A stretch of DNA of 10,094 nucleotides from Fidelibacterota bacterium (lineage in GTDB: Bacteria > Fidelibacterota > Marinisomatia > Marinisomatales > TCS56): NCBI GenBank assembly GCA_043822705.1, contig JBDRBK010000171.1, positions 1-10,094 of the forward strand. The letters are read 5' to 3'. The translations under genes and the position numbers were made by a program. Below are positions 2,864-10,094 of the stretch, piece after piece. The notes beneath the pieces are model-generated. The model did not search any database, had not been told where the DNA came from, and was given only the letters and a program-made list of their open reading frames with translations. Positions within the stretch are counted from its first letter, which is position 1; each line of letters starts with the position of its first letter.

Positions 2864-3673
2864 CTAGAAATATTCGATGTAGGTGATTTTCAACTCACGG
2901 TTGAAGTAGTCGACTTTATCCTTATCAAACAGCAGGTTGTTAAACTCCAGTTCGATGTGCAGATGTTCGACAAAGGTCCAACGGATGGCGGCATTGAGAA
3001 AGCCACCCTTGTTCAGTGCCAGCGATTGAACGGTTTGATCGTTATCATTCAGCGCGGCGTTGTATTCCAGCAGCAGGGCGAATTCCGGATTCAATTCGGC
3101 ATCGGCGCCGAAAAACAGGTTGATATCCTTGTCACCGTCGCTGGTCTCGGTAAAATTGTAATTCAGGCCGCCGTGAAACCCGGCATTGCCCAGCAGAAAA
3201 CGCCAGTTCTTGCTGGCCGCGGCATAGACGCCGTAGGCCTTCACGTCGTAACGCTTGAGCGAATCGGCGGGATGATACTGCCCGAATCCCTGGGTGTCCA
3301 GTCCGATAGCAACGCCCGGAACGGACCCGGTCTCGTCGATCAGGCGGTATTTGAGATTGGCCTCGGGCCGGGGATAGGGCGTCGGTTCGTTGTCGCCGAT
3401 CAACTGGCTGGCACCGTAGGAAATGCCGAACATGAACCGGTCGGTGAGACCAGCCGCCAGTCCGGCCGTAAGACTGCCGTTTTTCTGCAGGCGCATGTCC
3501 ACGGCGAAACTGCCCCGGACCAGCGTGCCGGCGGTCGGCACGGTGATCAGACTGGTGGGCGGCGGGTAGGCCGCCTGCTGGGCCGAAACACTGACTGACA
3601 GCATCAAAACCGCCAAAAGAATGAATTGATAACGATTTGGTTTACCTGCGGAATACATTAATTGTGTTCCCAT
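2864..3673 (-). CDS. YjbH-domain-like outer-membrane beta-barrel protein
   Basis: Signal peptide ending VSA|QQ. LITVPTAGTLxxG and LKYRLIDE...PGVAIG resemble YjbH-like barrels. Amphipathic beta-strands and C-terminal beta-signal ITYIEYF. The start may instead be the ATG at 3658. Confidence 0.65.
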   Translation of the reverse strand: MGTQLMYSAGKPNRYQFILLAVLMLSVSVSAQQAAYPPPTSLITVPTAGTLVRGSFAVDMRLQKNGSLTAGLAAGLTDRFMFGISYGASQLIGDNEPTPYPRPEANLKYRLIDETGSVPGVAIGLDTQGFGQYHPADSLKRYDVKAYGVYAAASKNWRFLLGNAGFHGGLNYNFTETSDGDKDINLFFGADAELNPEFALLLEYNAALNDNDQTVQSLALNKGGFLNAAIRWTFVEHLHIELEFNNLLFDKDKVDYFNRELKITYIEYF

Positions 3674-3760: not shown

Positions 3761-4744
3761 TCAGGGGTAAAGCCGTTCGCCATAGCGGGAAACGACCAGG
3801 CGTACTTTTTCCAGTGGCAGGGAATAGTCGACCCCCTCACCCGGCCGCTGGAATTGCAAAATTGGTCCCGCCAGACCGATGAAATTGATATCCAGTTCTT
3901 CCCCGGTTTTCAGCACCAGGCGGTCCCATTCGGTTTTTGGGATCAGGGTCTGGTAGGGCAATTGACTCTTCTGGCGGCCGATTTCACTCATGATCAGTTC
4001 GACTTCATCGAGAATGTTACCGGTCCGGGGGGGCGGCACCTTGTAAAGCTGGTCCGCCGGCGCCATCGCCAGGGCTACGTCACTGACCATTTTCCCCTGC
4101 CGATTATACTCAGTCAGGCGGATCGAATTGGCGGAATAATCCTGCTGGTAGCGGTACAGCCGGACGACCTTGTTGTCAGGCAGGGTCAGCCAGGATTCGG
4201 ACAACAGGCCGGCCTGATTGTCGTACTGGAACACGATCCGGCCGTAATCGGTGCCGTCCACAGTGCGGAAACCGATCGAGCCGACCCGGCCGTTGGCGGC
4301 AAAAGTAAAAGTGCTGTTCTGGTCGGTATAGGCCAGGTTCTGGTTGCCGATCGCGGTATATTCCCGGAACGCCCGACTCCAGGCTTCATCGGCGCCGTAC
4401 CGGATCACCTTCTCCACCTGTTTGACCTCGTTCAGGACGGCACGCTGCACCAGACGCCGCTGATTATCGTAGGAATAGAGTTCGTGGCCGGTGGCCAACC
4501 CCAGTTGATTGTAGCGGGTGACGAACAGCGGGTCGCCGGATTCACCATAGACCACTTCCAGATGCGCAATGCCGTTGCGGCTGGTCGCCAGCAGGGCGTT
4601 GTCGGCCAGAAAAGCACGATCGTCGCGGAAGTATTTGAAGTAGGCTACCTGTTCCTGGGCCGCCAGGACGCCCAACAAGACTGCCAGCAGAAAAATAAAA
4701 TATGCGCGCGCGCTCAGGGCGCAAATCTCCACGCCACCGGACAA
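3761..4744 (-). CDS. Exported hypothetical protein with YD-like beta-hairpin repeats and a small C-terminal beta domain
   Basis: 327-codon GC-rich ORF filling the gap in a co-directional cluster. Signal-like SARAYFIFLLAVLLGVLAA|Q. Repeated YGESG, YNQLG, YDNQRRLV, FAANGRV, YDNQAGLL and YNRQG. No N-terminal ATG; candidate starts are TTG 4744, GTG 4732 and CTG 4717. Confidence 0.8.
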   Translation of the reverse strand: MSGGVEICALSARAYFIFLLAVLLGVLAAQEQVAYFKYFRDDRAFLADNALLATSRNGIAHLEVVYGESGDPLFVTRYNQLGLATGHELYSYDNQRRLVQRAVLNEVKQVEKVIRYGADEAWSRAFREYTAIGNQNLAYTDQNSTFTFAANGRVGSIGFRTVDGTDYGRIVFQYDNQAGLLSESWLTLPDNKVVRLYRYQQDYSANSIRLTEYNRQGKMVSDVALAMAPADQLYKVPPPRTGNILDEVELIMSEIGRQKSQLPYQTLIPKTEWDRLVLKTGEELDINFIGLAGPILQFQRPGEGVDYSLPLEKVRLVVSRYGERLYP

Positions 4745-5640
4745 TGATCAGAAACATTCTCTTCGTATTGGTACCAGCCTCCATCCAGATATTCATCAAT
4801 GCGAATGACTCGGATTTCGGATTGTTCTTCTTCGGCTTCGTCAAACAATGGTGAAGTAATTAAGATATGATCAATATGGCTGGGCCAGGTTGGGTAGGAA
4901 AAACCTGATTTCGGTCCATTGGCGATATCCATGTCGATGAATTTAAAGCCGTCCGGTTGAGAAATGAAATTCCAGAATACATTATCGTTTTCATCGTCGG
5001 TCAATTCATCATTCCAGTCACCGATTATGATAACGTTATCCGTGGCCAGGTTCTGTTCAATATAATCCTCCAGCAGCAAGCAGGCCGACCGTCGGCGAGC
5101 TTCACTATCTGCGTCAGACATTGCTTTTAAATGATTATTGATAATGGTATATGATTCCCCGGATTTAGTTACGGTCAGCACATACGGTTCCCGGGGAAAT
5201 GCACTGCCTTCGGATTGATAAATTTCAACCGGTGGAGAGTCAACAAGCACTTGGTCCGTATTCACTATATATGCCAATTCCATCATGAATCCACCACTGT
5301 AATCTTTTGCCAAATATCCCAACCAACCGCCGTCCTGGTCAAGCTGATTCAGCCTATCTACAATTGCATAGAAACTGGGGCCATCACCAATTTCCTGAAA
5401 ACCTACCACATCGATTTGAAGATAGAAAATTATCTGGGCGACATAATCAACAGTCTGTTGACCAACCAAAGGAAATTCTTTTAGATTCCAGGTGACAACT
5501 TCCAGGGTGGAATCGGAGCCGAACTGTATTCCGCTAAGGCCATCGGGCACATCATCCAGCCGGGATTCAGTCGGCTTGGCACAGGCCGCCAATAGCAGTA
5601 AAACAGCCCCTGCCAGCAGGTACCGGGTGTGGAAAATCAT
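4714..5640 (-). CDS. Endonuclease/exonuclease/phosphatase (EEP, DNase I-like fold) family lipoprotein
   Basis: Lipobox LLAAC (Cys20). Full EEP motif set VVTWNL, DVVGFQEI, FPREP, NNHLK, IIGDWND, SYP...IDHILIT and SDHCPV. ATGA overlap with the upstream gene. Confidence 0.92.
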   Translation of the reverse strand: MIFHTRYLLAGAVLLLLAACAKPTESRLDDVPDGLSGIQFGSDSTLEVVTWNLKEFPLVGQQTVDYVAQIIFYLQIDVVGFQEIGDGPSFYAIVDRLNQLDQDGGWLGYLAKDYSGGFMMELAYIVNTDQVLVDSPPVEIYQSEGSAFPREPYVLTVTKSGESYTIINNHLKAMSDADSEARRRSACLLLEDYIEQNLATDNVIIIGDWNDELTDDENDNVFWNFISQPDGFKFIDMDIANGPKSGFSYPTWPSHIDHILITSPLFDEAEEEQSEIRVIRIDEYLDGGWYQYEENVSDHCPVAWRFAP

Positions 5641-7568
5641 TCTACGGGAAAACCGACCATCACCGGCTGGTGGTCGGAAATATAGTCTTCATAGACGCTA
5701 TAACCGCCCATATAATCACCCAATCGCAGGGTTTGTACACGCTTGGTACTGGTTCGTGGTACGAACTGATCCGTGACCAGTATATGATCCAGGAAGCTAA
5801 CATAGGGTTCTTTCGGATATGACGCCTGTTCCAGGTCATATACGAGATCACGATTGACAAAATAAAACCGGTCATCATCGAAAAACGGATGAAATCCGTG
5901 GGCGTTACCGGCATCTTTGAGATCATCATTCCAGTCACCCAGTACGACAAAATTGCGTTGTCCCCGATTCCATTGTTCAGCCAGATAATCATGGAGCATC
6001 TGCACGGCATTCTGGCGCCTTTTCAGACCGGAATCACAACACTTCATGTGCAGATTGATCACGCTGAAATGCACGGTTTTCCCGTTGACAAAATAACTGA
6101 AATCCGCCTGCAGGGGTGGACGACCGGCGAAATTATAATCATCCTCGGCGAAGATTTCCAATTGCCGCTCCAGAGTAAACAGATCCTTTTTGAAGATAAT
6201 CGCTTGATCGAGAAACGAACTCTGGCGGGAAATAACAAAATCATATTCCGGCAGATAATCCATCAGGTCGCTGAACCGGCCGGCGAACCGGATTTCCTGG
6301 AATGCGATAATATCGGGGTTCAGATCATGTACGGCTTCGGCCAGGGCGGTAATGGTAGTATCTTCCTTATGCGGAAAATTCTCGACGTTCCAGGTCATTA
6401 TCTCAATCTGGTCATCACGATTGATATCGGGGAAATCCCAGTTATCCGGCAATTCGGGCCAGGTCCCCGGAGATACACCAGCCAACGGAAATATTTTTGG
6501 CGAGTTATAAATCGCGTTAGTGGCAGTGTTGACCCGCTGACGAATCCAATCCCTAACGGTATAATCGGGTTCAAAATCATCCGCCAGTAACGATTGTGTG
6601 ACCCGGCCGTCCACAGCCGGTTGATAGCCGATAAAATGTCGTGTCGCAGTGTCCACTTCCAGTATAATATGACCGATTTCTGTTCCACCGCCATAATTCT
6701 GAAACAGGTAGGTATGACTATTGGGATCGTACCAGGGCTCCGGGTAACTGCGGCTGACTCCACCGGTAATCATGATATCGACACCTTCGGCAAAATAGCA
6801 CATCTCCAACGCAGATAAAGGTGACTCAACCGGGTTCCACCCGGGCGTGGTTGCCATGCTGTCGATAAAATCAGCGTAGACTTCTTCCCGGTCGTAGGGC
6901 TCACCGGCACTGGTGAGGCAGATAATTATATCGGCACCAGCTTCGCGGACCTCCGGCAGCCATTTGCGCAACGCCTGTACCTCGGTCAGCGTTTCAATAC
7001 CGGGGATATTTTGCCGCAGGACAGTATTAATAATATTTGATGAAACGACACCCAGGATACCCAGCTTCACTCCCGCCACTTCGTGAATAATATATGGCTT
7101 GAAATTGGTGGAAGTCAGGGAACAGCCATTGCAGATCAGATTTGAGGCCAGGAAGGGGAATTCGGCCGCCTCGGCCAGGGCGTTGAGTTTATCCGCGCCC
7201 AGAATGAAATCATATTGGCCGGGGACCAGGGCCGTATACCCGAGGCCGTTCATCCATTCCAGCATCGATTGACCGTCATCGTAAATCCCGAACGGGTGCC
7301 CCTGAAAAAAATTACCGCCATCCAGGATCAGTACTCCCGAATTCTGTCCCGCTAACTCCTTCCGCAGGTCGGATACATATTTATTGATGGCGGCGCCGCC
7401 GGTCATTTTCGGCGGGTATTCGGGATTCATGAAAGTGGCATCCTGCTCGCCGATAACACCGTGCAGATCGTTGGTGGTTATCAGATGGATCGTCGTTACT
7501 ATTCCCTGCCCCATGGCGAAACCCAGGTTCAGGCTCAAAACAATTGCTATCTTTTTTATGCCGTTCAT
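5637..7568 (-). CDS. Exported two-domain protein: degenerate UshA/5'-nucleotidase-type metallophosphoesterase N-domain fused to an intact EEP domain
   Basis: Signal peptide ending AMG|Q. N-domain has TNDLHG, LDGGNFFQG, PGQYDF, FPFLASN, KPYII.EVAGVKLGILG and GADIIICL, which follow the UshA N-domain pattern. C-domain (about 5640-6407) has MTWNVE, PDIIAFQEI, NLHMK, LGDWND, LDHILVT and SDHQPV. Confidence 0.9.
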   Translation of the reverse strand: MNGIKKIAIVLSLNLGFAMGQGIVTTIHLITTNDLHGVIGEQDATFMNPEYPPKMTGGAAINKYVSDLRKELAGQNSGVLILDGGNFFQGHPFGIYDDGQSMLEWMNGLGYTALVPGQYDFILGADKLNALAEAAEFPFLASNLICNGCSLTSTNFKPYIIHEVAGVKLGILGVVSSNIINTVLRQNIPGIETLTEVQALRKWLPEVREAGADIIICLTSAGEPYDREEVYADFIDSMATTPGWNPVESPLSALEMCYFAEGVDIMITGGVSRSYPEPWYDPNSHTYLFQNYGGGTEIGHIILEVDTATRHFIGYQPAVDGRVTQSLLADDFEPDYTVRDWIRQRVNTATNAIYNSPKIFPLAGVSPGTWPELPDNWDFPDINRDDQIEIMTWNVENFPHKEDTTITALAEAVHDLNPDIIAFQEIRFAGRFSDLMDYLPEYDFVISRQSSFLDQAIIFKKDLFTLERQLEIFAEDDYNFAGRPPLQADFSYFVNGKTVHFSVINLHMKCCDSGLKRRQNAVQMLHDYLAEQWNRGQRNFVVLGDWNDDLKDAGNAHGFHPFFDDDRFYFVNRDLVYDLEQASYPKEPYVSFLDHILVTDQFVPRTSTKRVQTLRLGDYMGGYSVYEDYISDHQPVMVGFPVE

Positions 7569-8917
7569 AAACTATAAGAGACGCTGATCAACACATCGAT
7601 TCGTGATTCGGTAACATGGTCCAGATCAGGACGCACATCGCCGGTTACAGGAAACAGGTCAGGATAGTCATAGGTGGTACTCGCAAAACCACCAGCCACG
7701 TCAATGGTAAAATCGCCAATCTGTTTGCCGGTTCCGAAAGTGTAGATGCTGGTAGGACCGATAGCAGCAAACGGTGATTCCCGAAATTCCAGACCAGCCC
7801 GCACCGGAATTTCCTTCATTGCCAGGTATTCGAAGCCGAATTTCCAGGAATTCACCGCCGGCATTTTTAGGCTGGTATCAGTCAACGCCAGCGTATACCC
7901 GGTTGTTCTCTGCCACTCGAAGGCCACTGTCATGGGAACTTCACCGACAGTCTGATAATCCAGACCCAAACGTCTAGTAGCCCCAAATACTTGTTGCATC
8001 CCGTCGGCATAATCAATTACCTGCCCCACAGTGGGAGCGTAATTAGCATAAATCGGCAAACCAGCGTCTGTCCCAAACGATGGCATAATAACGCTATCGG
8101 TCTTAACAGTATAATCGGAATCGAAAGCAAAATTGATTGAAAGTCCGAGGCTAGTTCTCAGACTAAATCCTATAGTGAATTCTTCATTACCTGGGAAATT
8201 AGTATTTAAACGCTGTTCCGCTACTCCAGCTAGATAATTTGAGGTTGTTAGTATCGTATCAACATAGAATTCTTCGATAAAATCACCGGCTGAAATAAAG
8301 TGATAGCTAAATCCAACAGAAAATACCAGTGATTTAGATAACTCTACACCAACCGCAGTACCAAGGCTGAAATGATTCAGATCACCAGCCGTGGTATAGA
8401 CATGGTAGCCCAACAGCGGATCGCGGTTATCGATTACACCATCGGCGGGGCTCAGACGCCCGCGTACTTCCTCGCGATACTGATAATTGAAATTAGTCAA
8501 CTGGCCGAAACTGATCCCGAAACCAAACCGCTGTCCCGCCAGGTGGGTACCGTAGACAGCTCCACCCTGGGCGGCAAAATCGTTATTGCGATTGATTACA
8601 TAATCACCACTGGTGAGAAAATCGCCGAAGGTATCCATCATATCCATGCTGCGGCGCTCCGAAATCAGCGTACCACGGGATTGAAAGTCGAGGCCGATTC
8701 CCGCTGCGGCATCAGCCAGCCCGGCTGGATTGGACAACAGAATTCCCGACGAGCGATCCGAAACACTGCTGGTGAAGCCCATAGCCATGGAACGGGCCGA
8801 ACCCGTAAAAACGGAGGCGGCTGTGCGGTTAAAATAGGACTGCCCAAAACTGCTGCCGGAAGTGATAAGCAGAGCGGCAGTCACGCTGATTGAAGTAAAA
8901 TTTTGTTTAAAGCGCAT
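7565..8917 (-). CDS. Outer-membrane beta-barrel, FadL/OmpP1- or PorV-like
   Basis: Signal peptide ending SFG|Q. N-terminal hatch motif GSARSMAMG...NPAGLA. Barrel-end features FGFEY, PVRAG, YTFGTG and IDVA. C-terminus LISVSYSL. ATGA overlap with the downstream gene. Confidence 0.8.
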   Translation of the reverse strand: MRFKQNFTSISVTAALLITSGSSFGQSYFNRTAASVFTGSARSMAMGFTSSVSDRSSGILLSNPAGLADAAAGIGLDFQSRGTLISERRSMDMMDTFGDFLTSGDYVINRNNDFAAQGGAVYGTHLAGQRFGFGISFGQLTNFNYQYREEVRGRLSPADGVIDNRDPLLGYHVYTTAGDLNHFSLGTAVGVELSKSLVFSVGFSYHFISAGDFIEEFYVDTILTTSNYLAGVAEQRLNTNFPGNEEFTIGFSLRTSLGLSINFAFDSDYTVKTDSVIMPSFGTDAGLPIYANYAPTVGQVIDYADGMQQVFGATRRLGLDYQTVGEVPMTVAFEWQRTTGYTLALTDTSLKMPAVNSWKFGFEYLAMKEIPVRAGLEFRESPFAAIGPTSIYTFGTGKQIGDFTIDVAGGFASTTYDYPDLFPVTGDVRPDLDHVTESRIDVLISVSYSL

Positions 8918-10094
8918 AATCTATTTGTATCCTGAAATCGGTATTGGAATTATTTACCAGGGGATTACTAATCCATTGGCCGGTATAAATCTGGCCCGAA
9001 GTCACCCGGGTGGAGGGAAAATCAATAGTGGAACTAATCTTGAAGCGCAGGGACAGGTGGGCATTGGGCTGGAGATTAAAAGCAACCCAGTTGTGCATGC
9101 CCCCGGATTCCGAATTGAAGATGCGAAAATCGGTATCTTCGAAATACCACATAAAGCCCTGGATGAACAGTAATCCGCCACGAACACTAAAATGTGTATC
9201 AAAATTATGGGTAGCACTAACACCAATCGTTTCATCCGGCGAGCCAACATCGCCCACCATCATATCAGCTCCAACCAACACATTCCCGGTCAACCGTGGT
9301 CGCGGTGAAAAAGTTGTATGTCCACGGGAATACAGCAGCTCAACCTGGTTGTAACGTGACATACGCAGTTGCACCCGCACGCGCGTCTCGCGCGAATTGA
9401 AAGGACTGGGGTTGGAAACATCCAGAGCACCACGAGCCTGCCATTTCTGGCGGACATTGATCCGGTAATTGAAGACTGGTCGCCAGTCCAGCGACATTAC
9501 TGTACGGTAATATTTTGCTTTGTCTGCTTTCCGGGTCCAGGTGTCATAGTTCAATGTAGCAACCACAGAACGATGAAACTGGTAACGGCCGGACAGGAAG
9601 GTACCTACTTCCGCCTGGGGCTGGGGATTCCCGGAATAAAGGTAGCTGTACACCGGATCTTCCAGCCAGTAGCTATCCTCGAAAATCGAGGTCTTGAAAC
9701 GCTGGTAGTTGGAGAATGAGCGTTGGTAAGGATTGTCATATTCCAGATCGTAATCGCGGTGCAGAGCCAGCAGATTCAGATTATCAAACTGAACAAAGGC
9801 GCTCAATACATAGGCATGGGGATCGTTACCCCATTTGAATATATTGTCATCCAGTGATAATTCGCCATATTCTCCCTGAAACGCAATATTGCCCACAACC
9901 CAGGTGAAATCCAGGCCACTGACCCGGCGAAAAGACTTGGCGGCAGCCCACAAATCTGATTCTCCGGAGGAGGCATACATGGCAGCAATTTCGGGATCGG
10001 CGGAGTTGGTCATATACTGGAGGTAATAAGCGTCACCGGAATAGGCGTCATAATCGGTGGCTGCATCAAAACCGGGATTGTCATCATCCACGCC
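8907..10094 (-). CDS. C-terminal part of a large outer-membrane beta-barrel protein, resembling the barrel region of FCB-group helix-hairpin-helix-domain proteins; 5' end outside the window
   Basis: Frame is open to the window edge, so the GTG at 10091 is probably internal. Many aromatic-rich amphipathic strands; ends FRIQIDYAL. The pattern GLDF...N...GE...L.LL..RDY...Y.NPY...FS...E.G.F....Y...YD.W recalls that family from memory. The HhH domain itself is not visible here. Overlaps the next gene by 11 nt. Confidence 0.6.
   Translation of the reverse strand, partial: GVDDDNPGFDAATDYDAYSGDAYYLQYMTNSADPEIAAMYASSGESDLWAAAKSFRRVSGLDFTWVVGNIAFQGEYGELSLDDNIFKWGNDPHAYVLSAFVQFDNLNLLALHRDYDLEYDNPYQRSFSNYQRFKTSIFEDSYWLEDPVYSYLYSGNPQPQAEVGTFLSGRYQFHRSVVATLNYDTWTRKADKAKYYRTVMSLDWRPVFNYRINVRQKWQARGALDVSNPSPFNSRETRVRVQLRMSRYNQVELLYSRGHTTFSPRPRLTGNVLVGADMMVGDVGSPDETIGVSATHNFDTHFSVRGGLLFIQGFMWYFEDTDFRIFNSESGGMHNWVAFNLQPNAHLSLRFKISSTIDFPSTRVTSGQIYTGQWISNPLVNNSNTDFRIQIDYAL

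Follow-up and report, generated by a model that had tools for sequence, protein, structure and literature searches.

We analysed a 10,094-nucleotide stretch of DNA from a Fidelibacterota bacterium (contig JBDRBK010000171.1 of assembly GCA_043822705.1), hereafter the window, which is the whole of a contig and carries four minus-strand open reading frames (ORFs), genes A to D, at one end. Together they form the downstream half of an envelope operon that is conserved and has seven genes, the other members, u1, u2 and u3, preceding A. The operon is real, conserved and apparently undescribed: we found no account of it in a literature search of the accessible articles. Its substrate is very likely nucleic acid. 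The best full mechanism, to which we assign a probability of about 0.6 on the basis of sequences and structural models, is that extracellular DNA or RNA is captured, imported across the outer membrane through the large barrel protein A, and salvaged as nucleosides and phosphate. An earlier reading of the window alone, hereafter the original prediction, had proposed a four-gene system for nucleic acids or phosphodiesters. Nucleic acid as the substrate class has stood, whereas the four-gene extent has given way to at least seven genes tied to type IX secretion.

The consecutive, overlapping arrangement described in the original prediction was reproduced, with overlaps of 11 nt between A and B and of 4 nt (ATGA) at both B/C and C/D. 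Contig C89 begins with 141 bases identical to the end of the window, a stretch found in no other contig, and supplies the front half of gene A together with the three tightly linked upstream genes, which lie off the window (Table 1). Promoter and terminator scans yielded no usable operon boundary. A partial copy of the upstream region (u3-u2-u1), 87% identical, is present on contig C160 and probably derives from a sister strain; the assembly is 6% contaminated.

We then surveyed related genomes. Gene A was present in 14 of 41 close genomes, and u1, searched with a profile built from operon-positive genomes, was present in the identical 14. Twelve of these carry the fusion gene C at full length; in one more a contig end truncates it, and the remaining genome, which is 81% complete, gave no match to it. 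No two-domain match to C occurred in the other 27 of the 41 genomes, and B was not found in any of the five operon-negative genomes tested. At greater distance, A matches were obtained in 65 of 151 class-level genomes and in 107 of 201 phylum-level genomes (8 of the 107 weak and short), with strong homologues in 99 of the 201 sampled phylum genomes. The named relatives are Ca. Neomarinimicrobiota/Fidelibacterota, and distant A homologues are named from Eisenbacteria, WOR-3, Caldipriscus and Fermentibacteraceae. The operon is widespread in marine and subsurface Fidelibacterota. Among 123 annotated loci, 120 hold A. The co-location of homologues, which the original prediction had put forward as a check, was borne out: u1 lies immediately before A in 108/108 loci with upstream DNA (12 cut), u2 before u1 in 91/92 (16 cut), and B after A in 106/111 (9 cut), the five exceptions being related loci in which housekeeping genes follow A. 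Gene order is near-invariant across the 120 loci, which span several phyla. One Fidelibacterota-like operon copy (A at 59% identity) comes from a record titled Flavobacteriales, which is possibly mis-binned (L020).

The original prediction had guessed that the large barrel might carry an N-terminal HhH domain. On C89 we found in the N-terminus of A a tandem HhH fold of the ComEA type, on which sequence profile and structure superposition agree. A profile of 75 A homologues matched the HhH regions of EEPD1 (E 1.3e-9) and ComEA (E 1.5e-5), and a distant A homologue contains two comE stretches. We utilized an AlphaFold2 model of a relative of A (78-81% identical; pLDDT 78.7, pTM 0.74), in which the N-terminus is helical to about residue 190 and is followed by 24 long strands, as counted from the DSSP string. 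Residues 21-84 superpose on ComEA 8dss with a Z of 11.7 and a root-mean-square deviation (rmsd) of 1.4 over 64 aa. The HhH region of A is fused to the barrel and is not a stand-alone receptor; a separate 141-aa ComEA-like gene lies on contig C70, near dprA.

The barrel itself aligned end to end with the ushers FimD and PapC and with MtrB (Z 11-12, rmsd 4.6-6). The structure search returned no close relative of it (best whole-barrel Z about 12), and atlas look-alikes of the model belong to unstudied clusters in Bacteroidota, Cloacimonadota and Fidelibacterota. Alignment of the model to TonB receptors was weak, Pfam and NCBIfam gave no TonB-receptor match in A, and A is not among the 19 PF00593 matches of the genome. 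Conservation in the barrel region is highest for arginine (23 of 44 are at least 90% conserved across 75 rows), and several strands show Arg/Lys alternating with hydrophobic residues. These arginines may face the lumen. An N-terminal HhH domain of an outer-membrane protein would normally face the periplasm, and those of A presumably do so.

The gene slot after B differs among lineages. Of 106 loci, 32 have an intact UshA there (one more has it split into two ORFs), 55 a fusion and 7 an N-domain that is cut; in the other 11 nothing was detected, and 7 of these loci run out within 130 nt. We take the catalytic and metal sites, by E. coli UshA numbering, to be D41, H43, D84, N116, H117, H217 and H252. 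The intact form, composed of Metallophos and 5_nucleotid_C domains, keeps D84, N116, H117, H217 and H252 in 32/32, whereas the 55 fusions retain D84 in 1, N116 in 5, H117 in 0, H217 in 32 and H252 in 3. Gene C of the window shows D84->N, N116->Q, H117->Y, H217->S and H252->G. It has no 5_nucleotid_C domain, an EEP domain standing in its place, and PF02872 (5_nucleotid_C) was not found anywhere in the window genome (93% complete). With most of its dimetal ligands and its catalytic His lost, the N-domain of C does not qualify as a UshA-type 5'-nucleotidase and is, judged by its sequence, a pseudo-enzyme of that type. This agrees with the original prediction, which had called it a pseudo-nucleotidase, and the catalytic His is kept in 0/55 fusions.

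A model of the window's C revealed two confident domains (pLDDT 88.8, pTM 0.88), with UshA and CD73 as top folds. The non-catalytic motifs FMNPEYPP and QNYG are common to the fusion and the intact form, which suggests that the pseudo-UshA domain keeps a binding or docking role. In a quick tree of 81 distinct N-domains, one branch divides the intact from the fusion type (SH-aLRT 99). This tree is unrooted; because the intact type spans distant clades as well as Fidelibacterota, the simplest reading of the sequences is a single derived origin of the fusion. In 8 loci B is followed by a gene for an e(P4)-like class C phosphatase, which in 6 of them directly precedes the fusion; none of the 32 UshA loci has it. 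Class C enzymes include 5'-nucleotidases (PMC8475336, accessible text). The window genome has no e(P4)-type insert. It does carry an unlinked AphA-like gene, which we rejected as an operon partner since its occurrence does not track the operon. At one locus (L032:5373-8381), C and D form a single 1002-aa ORF, either a real fusion or a sequence error.

The C-terminal domain of C and the D protein both matched PF03372 above cut-off, and D bears a lipobox-like LLLAAC, in line with the EEP fusion and EEP lipoprotein originally proposed. A lipobox-like motif is present in 28 of 49 D-slot proteins, whose starts are uncurated. The catalytic set of the C domain (N394, E425, R483, H507, D545, N547, D594, H595, D632 and H633) is complete; across homologues, at least 55 of 56 C domains and 47 of 50 D proteins retain the EEP catalytic residues, and the R-x-P motif of DNase I/gamma is kept in 56/56 C and 50/50 D sequences. 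With two such intact catalytic sets, the locus would encode its own secreted nuclease. Scores stayed below the cut-offs of nuclease subfamilies (MnuA 31 bits, cut-off 185; ExeM 17-20 bits, cut-off 300). The best PDB matches of a D-based profile, which also contained EEP cargo proteins, were DNase gamma (E 1e-8) and DNase I (E 1e-5), with phosphatases next.

The original prediction had named the EEPs as the enzymes that cut the polymer. Their place in the system needs correcting: because 32 loci hold an intact UshA in the slot and only 3 of these have an EEP in the locus, the EEP enzymes are a lineage-specific addition and not a conserved core. Genomes with an intact-UshA operon encode a D-like EEP elsewhere in 4/5 cases and Endonuclease I in 4/4 tested. 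Endonuclease I genes with a type IX secretion system (T9SS) tail flank the operon in 7 loci, several of them closely related, and at least 5 loci have EEP cargo genes upstream of it. Such secreted-nuclease genes adjoin the operon in some genomes; in the window genome they are unlinked.

Among the upstream genes, u1 is PorV/PorQ-like (E 7e-8), with no sequence match in the PDB. The u3 protein matches the non-catalytic N-terminus of ExeM/NucH (E 8e-22) and ends in a C-terminal sorting domain (CTD; TIGR04183, 33 bits, above cut-off). The u2 tail is weakly assigned, resembling FlgD_ig/Por_Secre_tail and not clearly TIGR04131. DUF5689 was detected in several u3/u2 homologues (E down to 5e-12) and was not scored in the u3 of the window genome. 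The FadL-like nature originally ascribed to B received support from profile matches in the FadL/TodX/PorV superfamily (TbuX E 1e-8, FadL E 4e-5, PorV E 3e-4), at levels that do not reach family cut-offs. B and u1 compared by hhalign gave 97%, and a distant B homologue matched BamG (E 9.6e-18, below the family cut-off).

Taken as a pathway, the proposed import would run as follows. Proteins u3 and u2 would be exported by the type IX system and held at the surface, u2 likely via its own PorV-like barrel u1. The OB-fold and lamin-tail domains found in them would bind the polymer, and secreted Endonuclease I or EEP cargos, together with lipoprotein D, would cut it, as their family assignments suggest. 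Fragments would cross the predicted, roughly 24-stranded, arginine-rich barrel A, held by its fused ComEA-like domains. The enzyme encoded after B would finish the breakdown; in most phyla this is an intact UshA 5'-nucleotidase. Here the dead UshA domain probably serves instead as a docking or binding module, and the fused EEP would trim oligonucleotides while another phosphatase removes phosphate. Nucleosides would then enter by NupC and be catabolised by DeoC, whose genes lie elsewhere in the genome. Supporting nucleic acid as the substrate, the locus repeatedly carries nucleotide-acting enzymes of three unrelated families: UshA (32 loci), the e(P4)-type enzyme (8) and Endonuclease I (7). 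More tentatively, and as a proposal we would not yet favour, A may represent a new class of outer-membrane nucleic-acid channel that is plugless, arginine-lined, equipped with its own ComEA-like ratchet and independent of pili and TonB. DNA-binding proteins displayed through type IX secretion would feed it, and it would be coupled to a periplasmic enzyme that can be exchanged; in Fidelibacterota, about half of the sampled genomes included, this enzyme would have been rebuilt once, leaving a dead nucleotidase domain as a docking adaptor that carries a nuclease.

Several points weigh against import and salvage. All of its support is sequence, context and prediction, and no energy coupling for import is evident. 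The model of A is that of a relative, and lumen, plug and HhH side are inferred rather than read from its coordinates. The 120 loci are not independent, collapsing to 83, 43 and 12 clusters at 90, 70 and 50% identity, and one clade (5 loci) has barrel A but neither B nor a nucleotidase. EEP matches include phosphatases too (4c1r, TDP2, nocturnin), the EEP domain of C alone gave no PDB match below E 0.1, and basic residues are scarce in D (5.1% K+R). EEPs resembling D turn up in 7 of the 27 genomes that lack the operon, and Endonuclease I is modestly enriched (10/14 operon-positive vs 7/27 negative genomes). The original prediction had suggested looking for a co-occurring nucleoside transporter; NupC is indeed present in the genome, but it occurs in 41/41 genomes and is not operon-linked. 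Like DeoC (38/41), it does not track the operon, and the two allow salvage but do not discriminate.

We weighed four alternatives. Digestion could take place at the surface with no import of polymer, A, B and u1 acting as a scaffold for binding proteins and enzymes while only nucleotides or nucleosides cross, perhaps via B. We consider this unlikely, given that the prediction for A is a wide barrel with conserved alternating arginines, which aligns lengthwise with ushers and MtrB, and that an N-terminal HhH region on the periplasmic side, the topology we assume for it, makes sense only if polymer arrives there. What speaks for it is that B and u1 are members of a superfamily (FadL/PorV) that includes shuttles in Bacteroidota, that a B homologue scores against BamG, that no motor is evident and that the substrates of UshA are mononucleotides (PMC8475336, accessible text). 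A pilus-independent DNA uptake serving mainly natural transformation, with A standing in for PilQ and ComEA in one protein and the enzymes reusing the strand that is discarded, seems less likely still. The window genome does have ComEC and DprA and no detected secretin, one clade retains A without the enzymes, and DUF5689 is described as essential for transformation in Riemerella (PMC8459023, accessible text). However, ComEC occurs in 35/41 genomes, mostly operon-free, secretins in 41/51 genomes, including all 13 other operon-positive relatives of the 41, and the stand-alone ComEA lies near dprA on a different contig. Their distribution does not follow that of the operon, which speaks against a role dedicated to transformation; moreover, degradative enzymes dominate the locus and no competence gene was found among the flanking ORFs scanned.

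We regard as improbable a third alternative, a system for small phosphoesters or phosphodiesters (nucleotide sugars, NAD, cyclic nucleotides, phospholipid head groups) in place of polymer. Such a system would suit the breadth of UshA-family and class C enzymes (PMC8475336, accessible text), the phosphatases among EEP matches and a FadL-like B, yet it leaves the HhH, OB and DUF5689 domains and the adjacent Endonuclease I genes unexplained. The acidity of D, which the original prediction had read as a hint of phospholipid or small phosphodiester substrates, is a weak pointer, since the Endonuclease I domains encoded in this genome are about as acidic (11.7-18.3% D+E and 6.3-9.2% K+R, vs 17.6% D+E in D). 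It is very improbable that the operon is a T9SS accessory or export module unrelated to nutrient uptake. Its PorV-like barrels and CTD cargos would fit such a role, as would sprA, more PorV-like genes and a PorZ-like gene located 2-10 kb upstream. Yet SprA is present in 41/41 relatives and the operon in only 14/41, and the nucleotidase slot is conserved across phyla. Because SprA is universal and the operon accessory, we rejected a core role; the operon is a client of type IX secretion.

Other features surround the operon. On its 3' side the window encodes a 327-aa protein with no family match (3761-4744; 3' of the operon in 20 loci), a YjbH-like barrel (2864-3673; 3' of the operon in 28 loci), a YtfJ-like protein (2314-2850) and a NudE-like Nudix hydrolase (1603-2154), which recurs in 14 loci and could act on nucleotides. 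The YjbH-like gene was rejected as an operon member because it is present in 5/5 operon-negative genomes. Immediately 5' of the operon in two distant loci (L124:3-2981 and L136:1286-4741) is a carbohydrate-type ABC transporter (SBP_bac_1/8, two permeases), a candidate importer of breakdown products. Upstream of the operon on C89 (8644-15564) are two PorV-like barrels, a PorZ-like CTD protein, a choice-of-anchor X protein, an M28 peptidase and the end of sprA, and custom profiles detected 12 u1-like PorV paralogues and 71 CTD-like proteins genome-wide. The occurrence of SprA in all 41 relatives stands beside a literature that, in its accessible part, describes the T9SS as Bacteroidota-specific. 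In the clade without B and nucleotidase, a u1 homologue is fused to an OmpA peptidoglycan-binding domain (L061:8413-9837). In many relatives the open frame that contains DeoC (C72:3314-3946 in the window genome) measures about 470 aa, pointing to a fusion or a long extension. Duplicated regions of 87-91% identity on C160, C209 and C153 (u3-u2-u1 with an asparaginase; two Endonuclease I-CTD gene pairs) point to two strains or species in the assembly.

Table 1 Coordinates of the operon genes and their parts in the window and on contig C89
Feature	Position	Strand	Description
Gene A	8907->10094	minus	5'-open; C-terminal 395 aa of a protein of ~830 aa; predicted large outer-membrane beta-barrel, conserved arginines
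Gene A, N-terminal half	C89:1-1470		ComEA-like HhH domains
u1	C89:1457-2338		PorV-like barrel, 293 aa
u2	C89:2352-3902		Lamin-tail/OB/FlgD-like cargo, 516 aa
u3	C89:3902-6547		OB/PKD/T9SS-CTD cargo, 881 aa
Gene B	7565-8917	minus	450-aa FadL/TodX/PorV-superfamily barrel; channel or scaffold role not decided
Gene C, whole	5637-7568	minus	643 aa; UshA-type N-domain and EEP C-domain
Gene C, N-part	6504..7568	minus	Signal-peptide-like N-terminus and UshA-type metallophosphoesterase domain without catalytic His and most metal ligands
Gene C, C-terminal EEP domain	5637..6410	minus	Complete catalytic set
Gene D	4714-5640	minus	308-aa predicted lipoprotein (Cys20); DNase I-like EEP domain, intact

DNA is known to cross the outer membrane either through a secretin with a pilus or by a TonB-type transporter; a barrel with built-in ComEA domains would be a third route. 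If A is such a channel, SAR406/Marinimicrobia would be unrecognised consumers of dissolved DNA, and the operon could matter for environmental DNA turnover, given its spread in the phylum and in several other uncultured phyla. The series of intact UshA, dead UshA with EEP, and dead UshA with EEP and an e(P4)-type insert yields an assayable prediction for each enzyme and would offer an example of a pseudo-enzyme retained as an adaptor.

The operon shares parts with several characterised systems, which we compared from the accessible text of the articles cited. ComEA/PilQ/ComEC systems share the ComEA-type HhH fold (Z 11.7 to 8dss), whereas here HhH is fused to the barrel, pilus genes and ComEC are absent from the locus, and a separate ComEA is present in the genome. 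Riemerella anatipestifer RA0C_RS04915/04920/02645 comprise an outer-membrane barrel, a DUF5689 surface protein and an HhH protein, all required there for DNA entry; there, two genes encode the HhH protein and the barrel, and the latter resembles a TonB receptor (PMC8459023). As in Flavobacterium type B CTD cargos with their PorP/SprF shuttle (PMC12618676), the u2 cargo gene lies directly upstream of the PorV/PorQ-like u1 (91/92 loci), although the u2 tail is not clearly of the TIGR04131 type and its pairing with u1 is putative. Lamin-tail, nuclease and nucleotidase genes mark sediment DNA foragers (PMC8289736). The lamin-tail, OB-fold, EEP and 5'-nucleotidase domains of ExeM/NucH nucleases with UshA (Shewanella/Vibrio; Izemoplasma loci, PMC8289736) are all represented here, but they are split among proteins, UshA is inactivated and EEP-fused, and the operon includes barrels of its own.

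Of the systems tested, ddbABCDEF of Bacteroides thetaiotaomicron comes closest, a DNA-utilisation locus resembling a polysaccharide utilisation locus and related to the Riemerella transformation genes (PMC12478041, PMC8459023). It combines an outer-membrane transporter, a DUF5689/OB-type surface binder and surface and periplasmic nucleases, with an enzyme content that varies by subtype (PMC12478041). The present operon is predicted to follow the same logic, and several of its u3/u2 homologues carry DUF5689, a domain of DdbD and RA0C_RS04920 (PMC12478041, PMC8459023). DdbC, however, is annotated as TonB-dependent and its partners are lipoproteins or signal peptidase I (SPI) proteins (PMC12478041), whereas A is a predicted barrel of about 24 strands with fused HhH and no TonB-receptor family match (A was not compared with DdbC itself). 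Here the binders are T9SS cargos with a dedicated PorV-like barrel, and the FadL-like barrel and the nucleotidase slot are extra. This locus contributes three things to the picture: a swapped enzyme, compensation for that swap by a nucleotidase of an unrelated family, and Endonuclease I recruited alongside.

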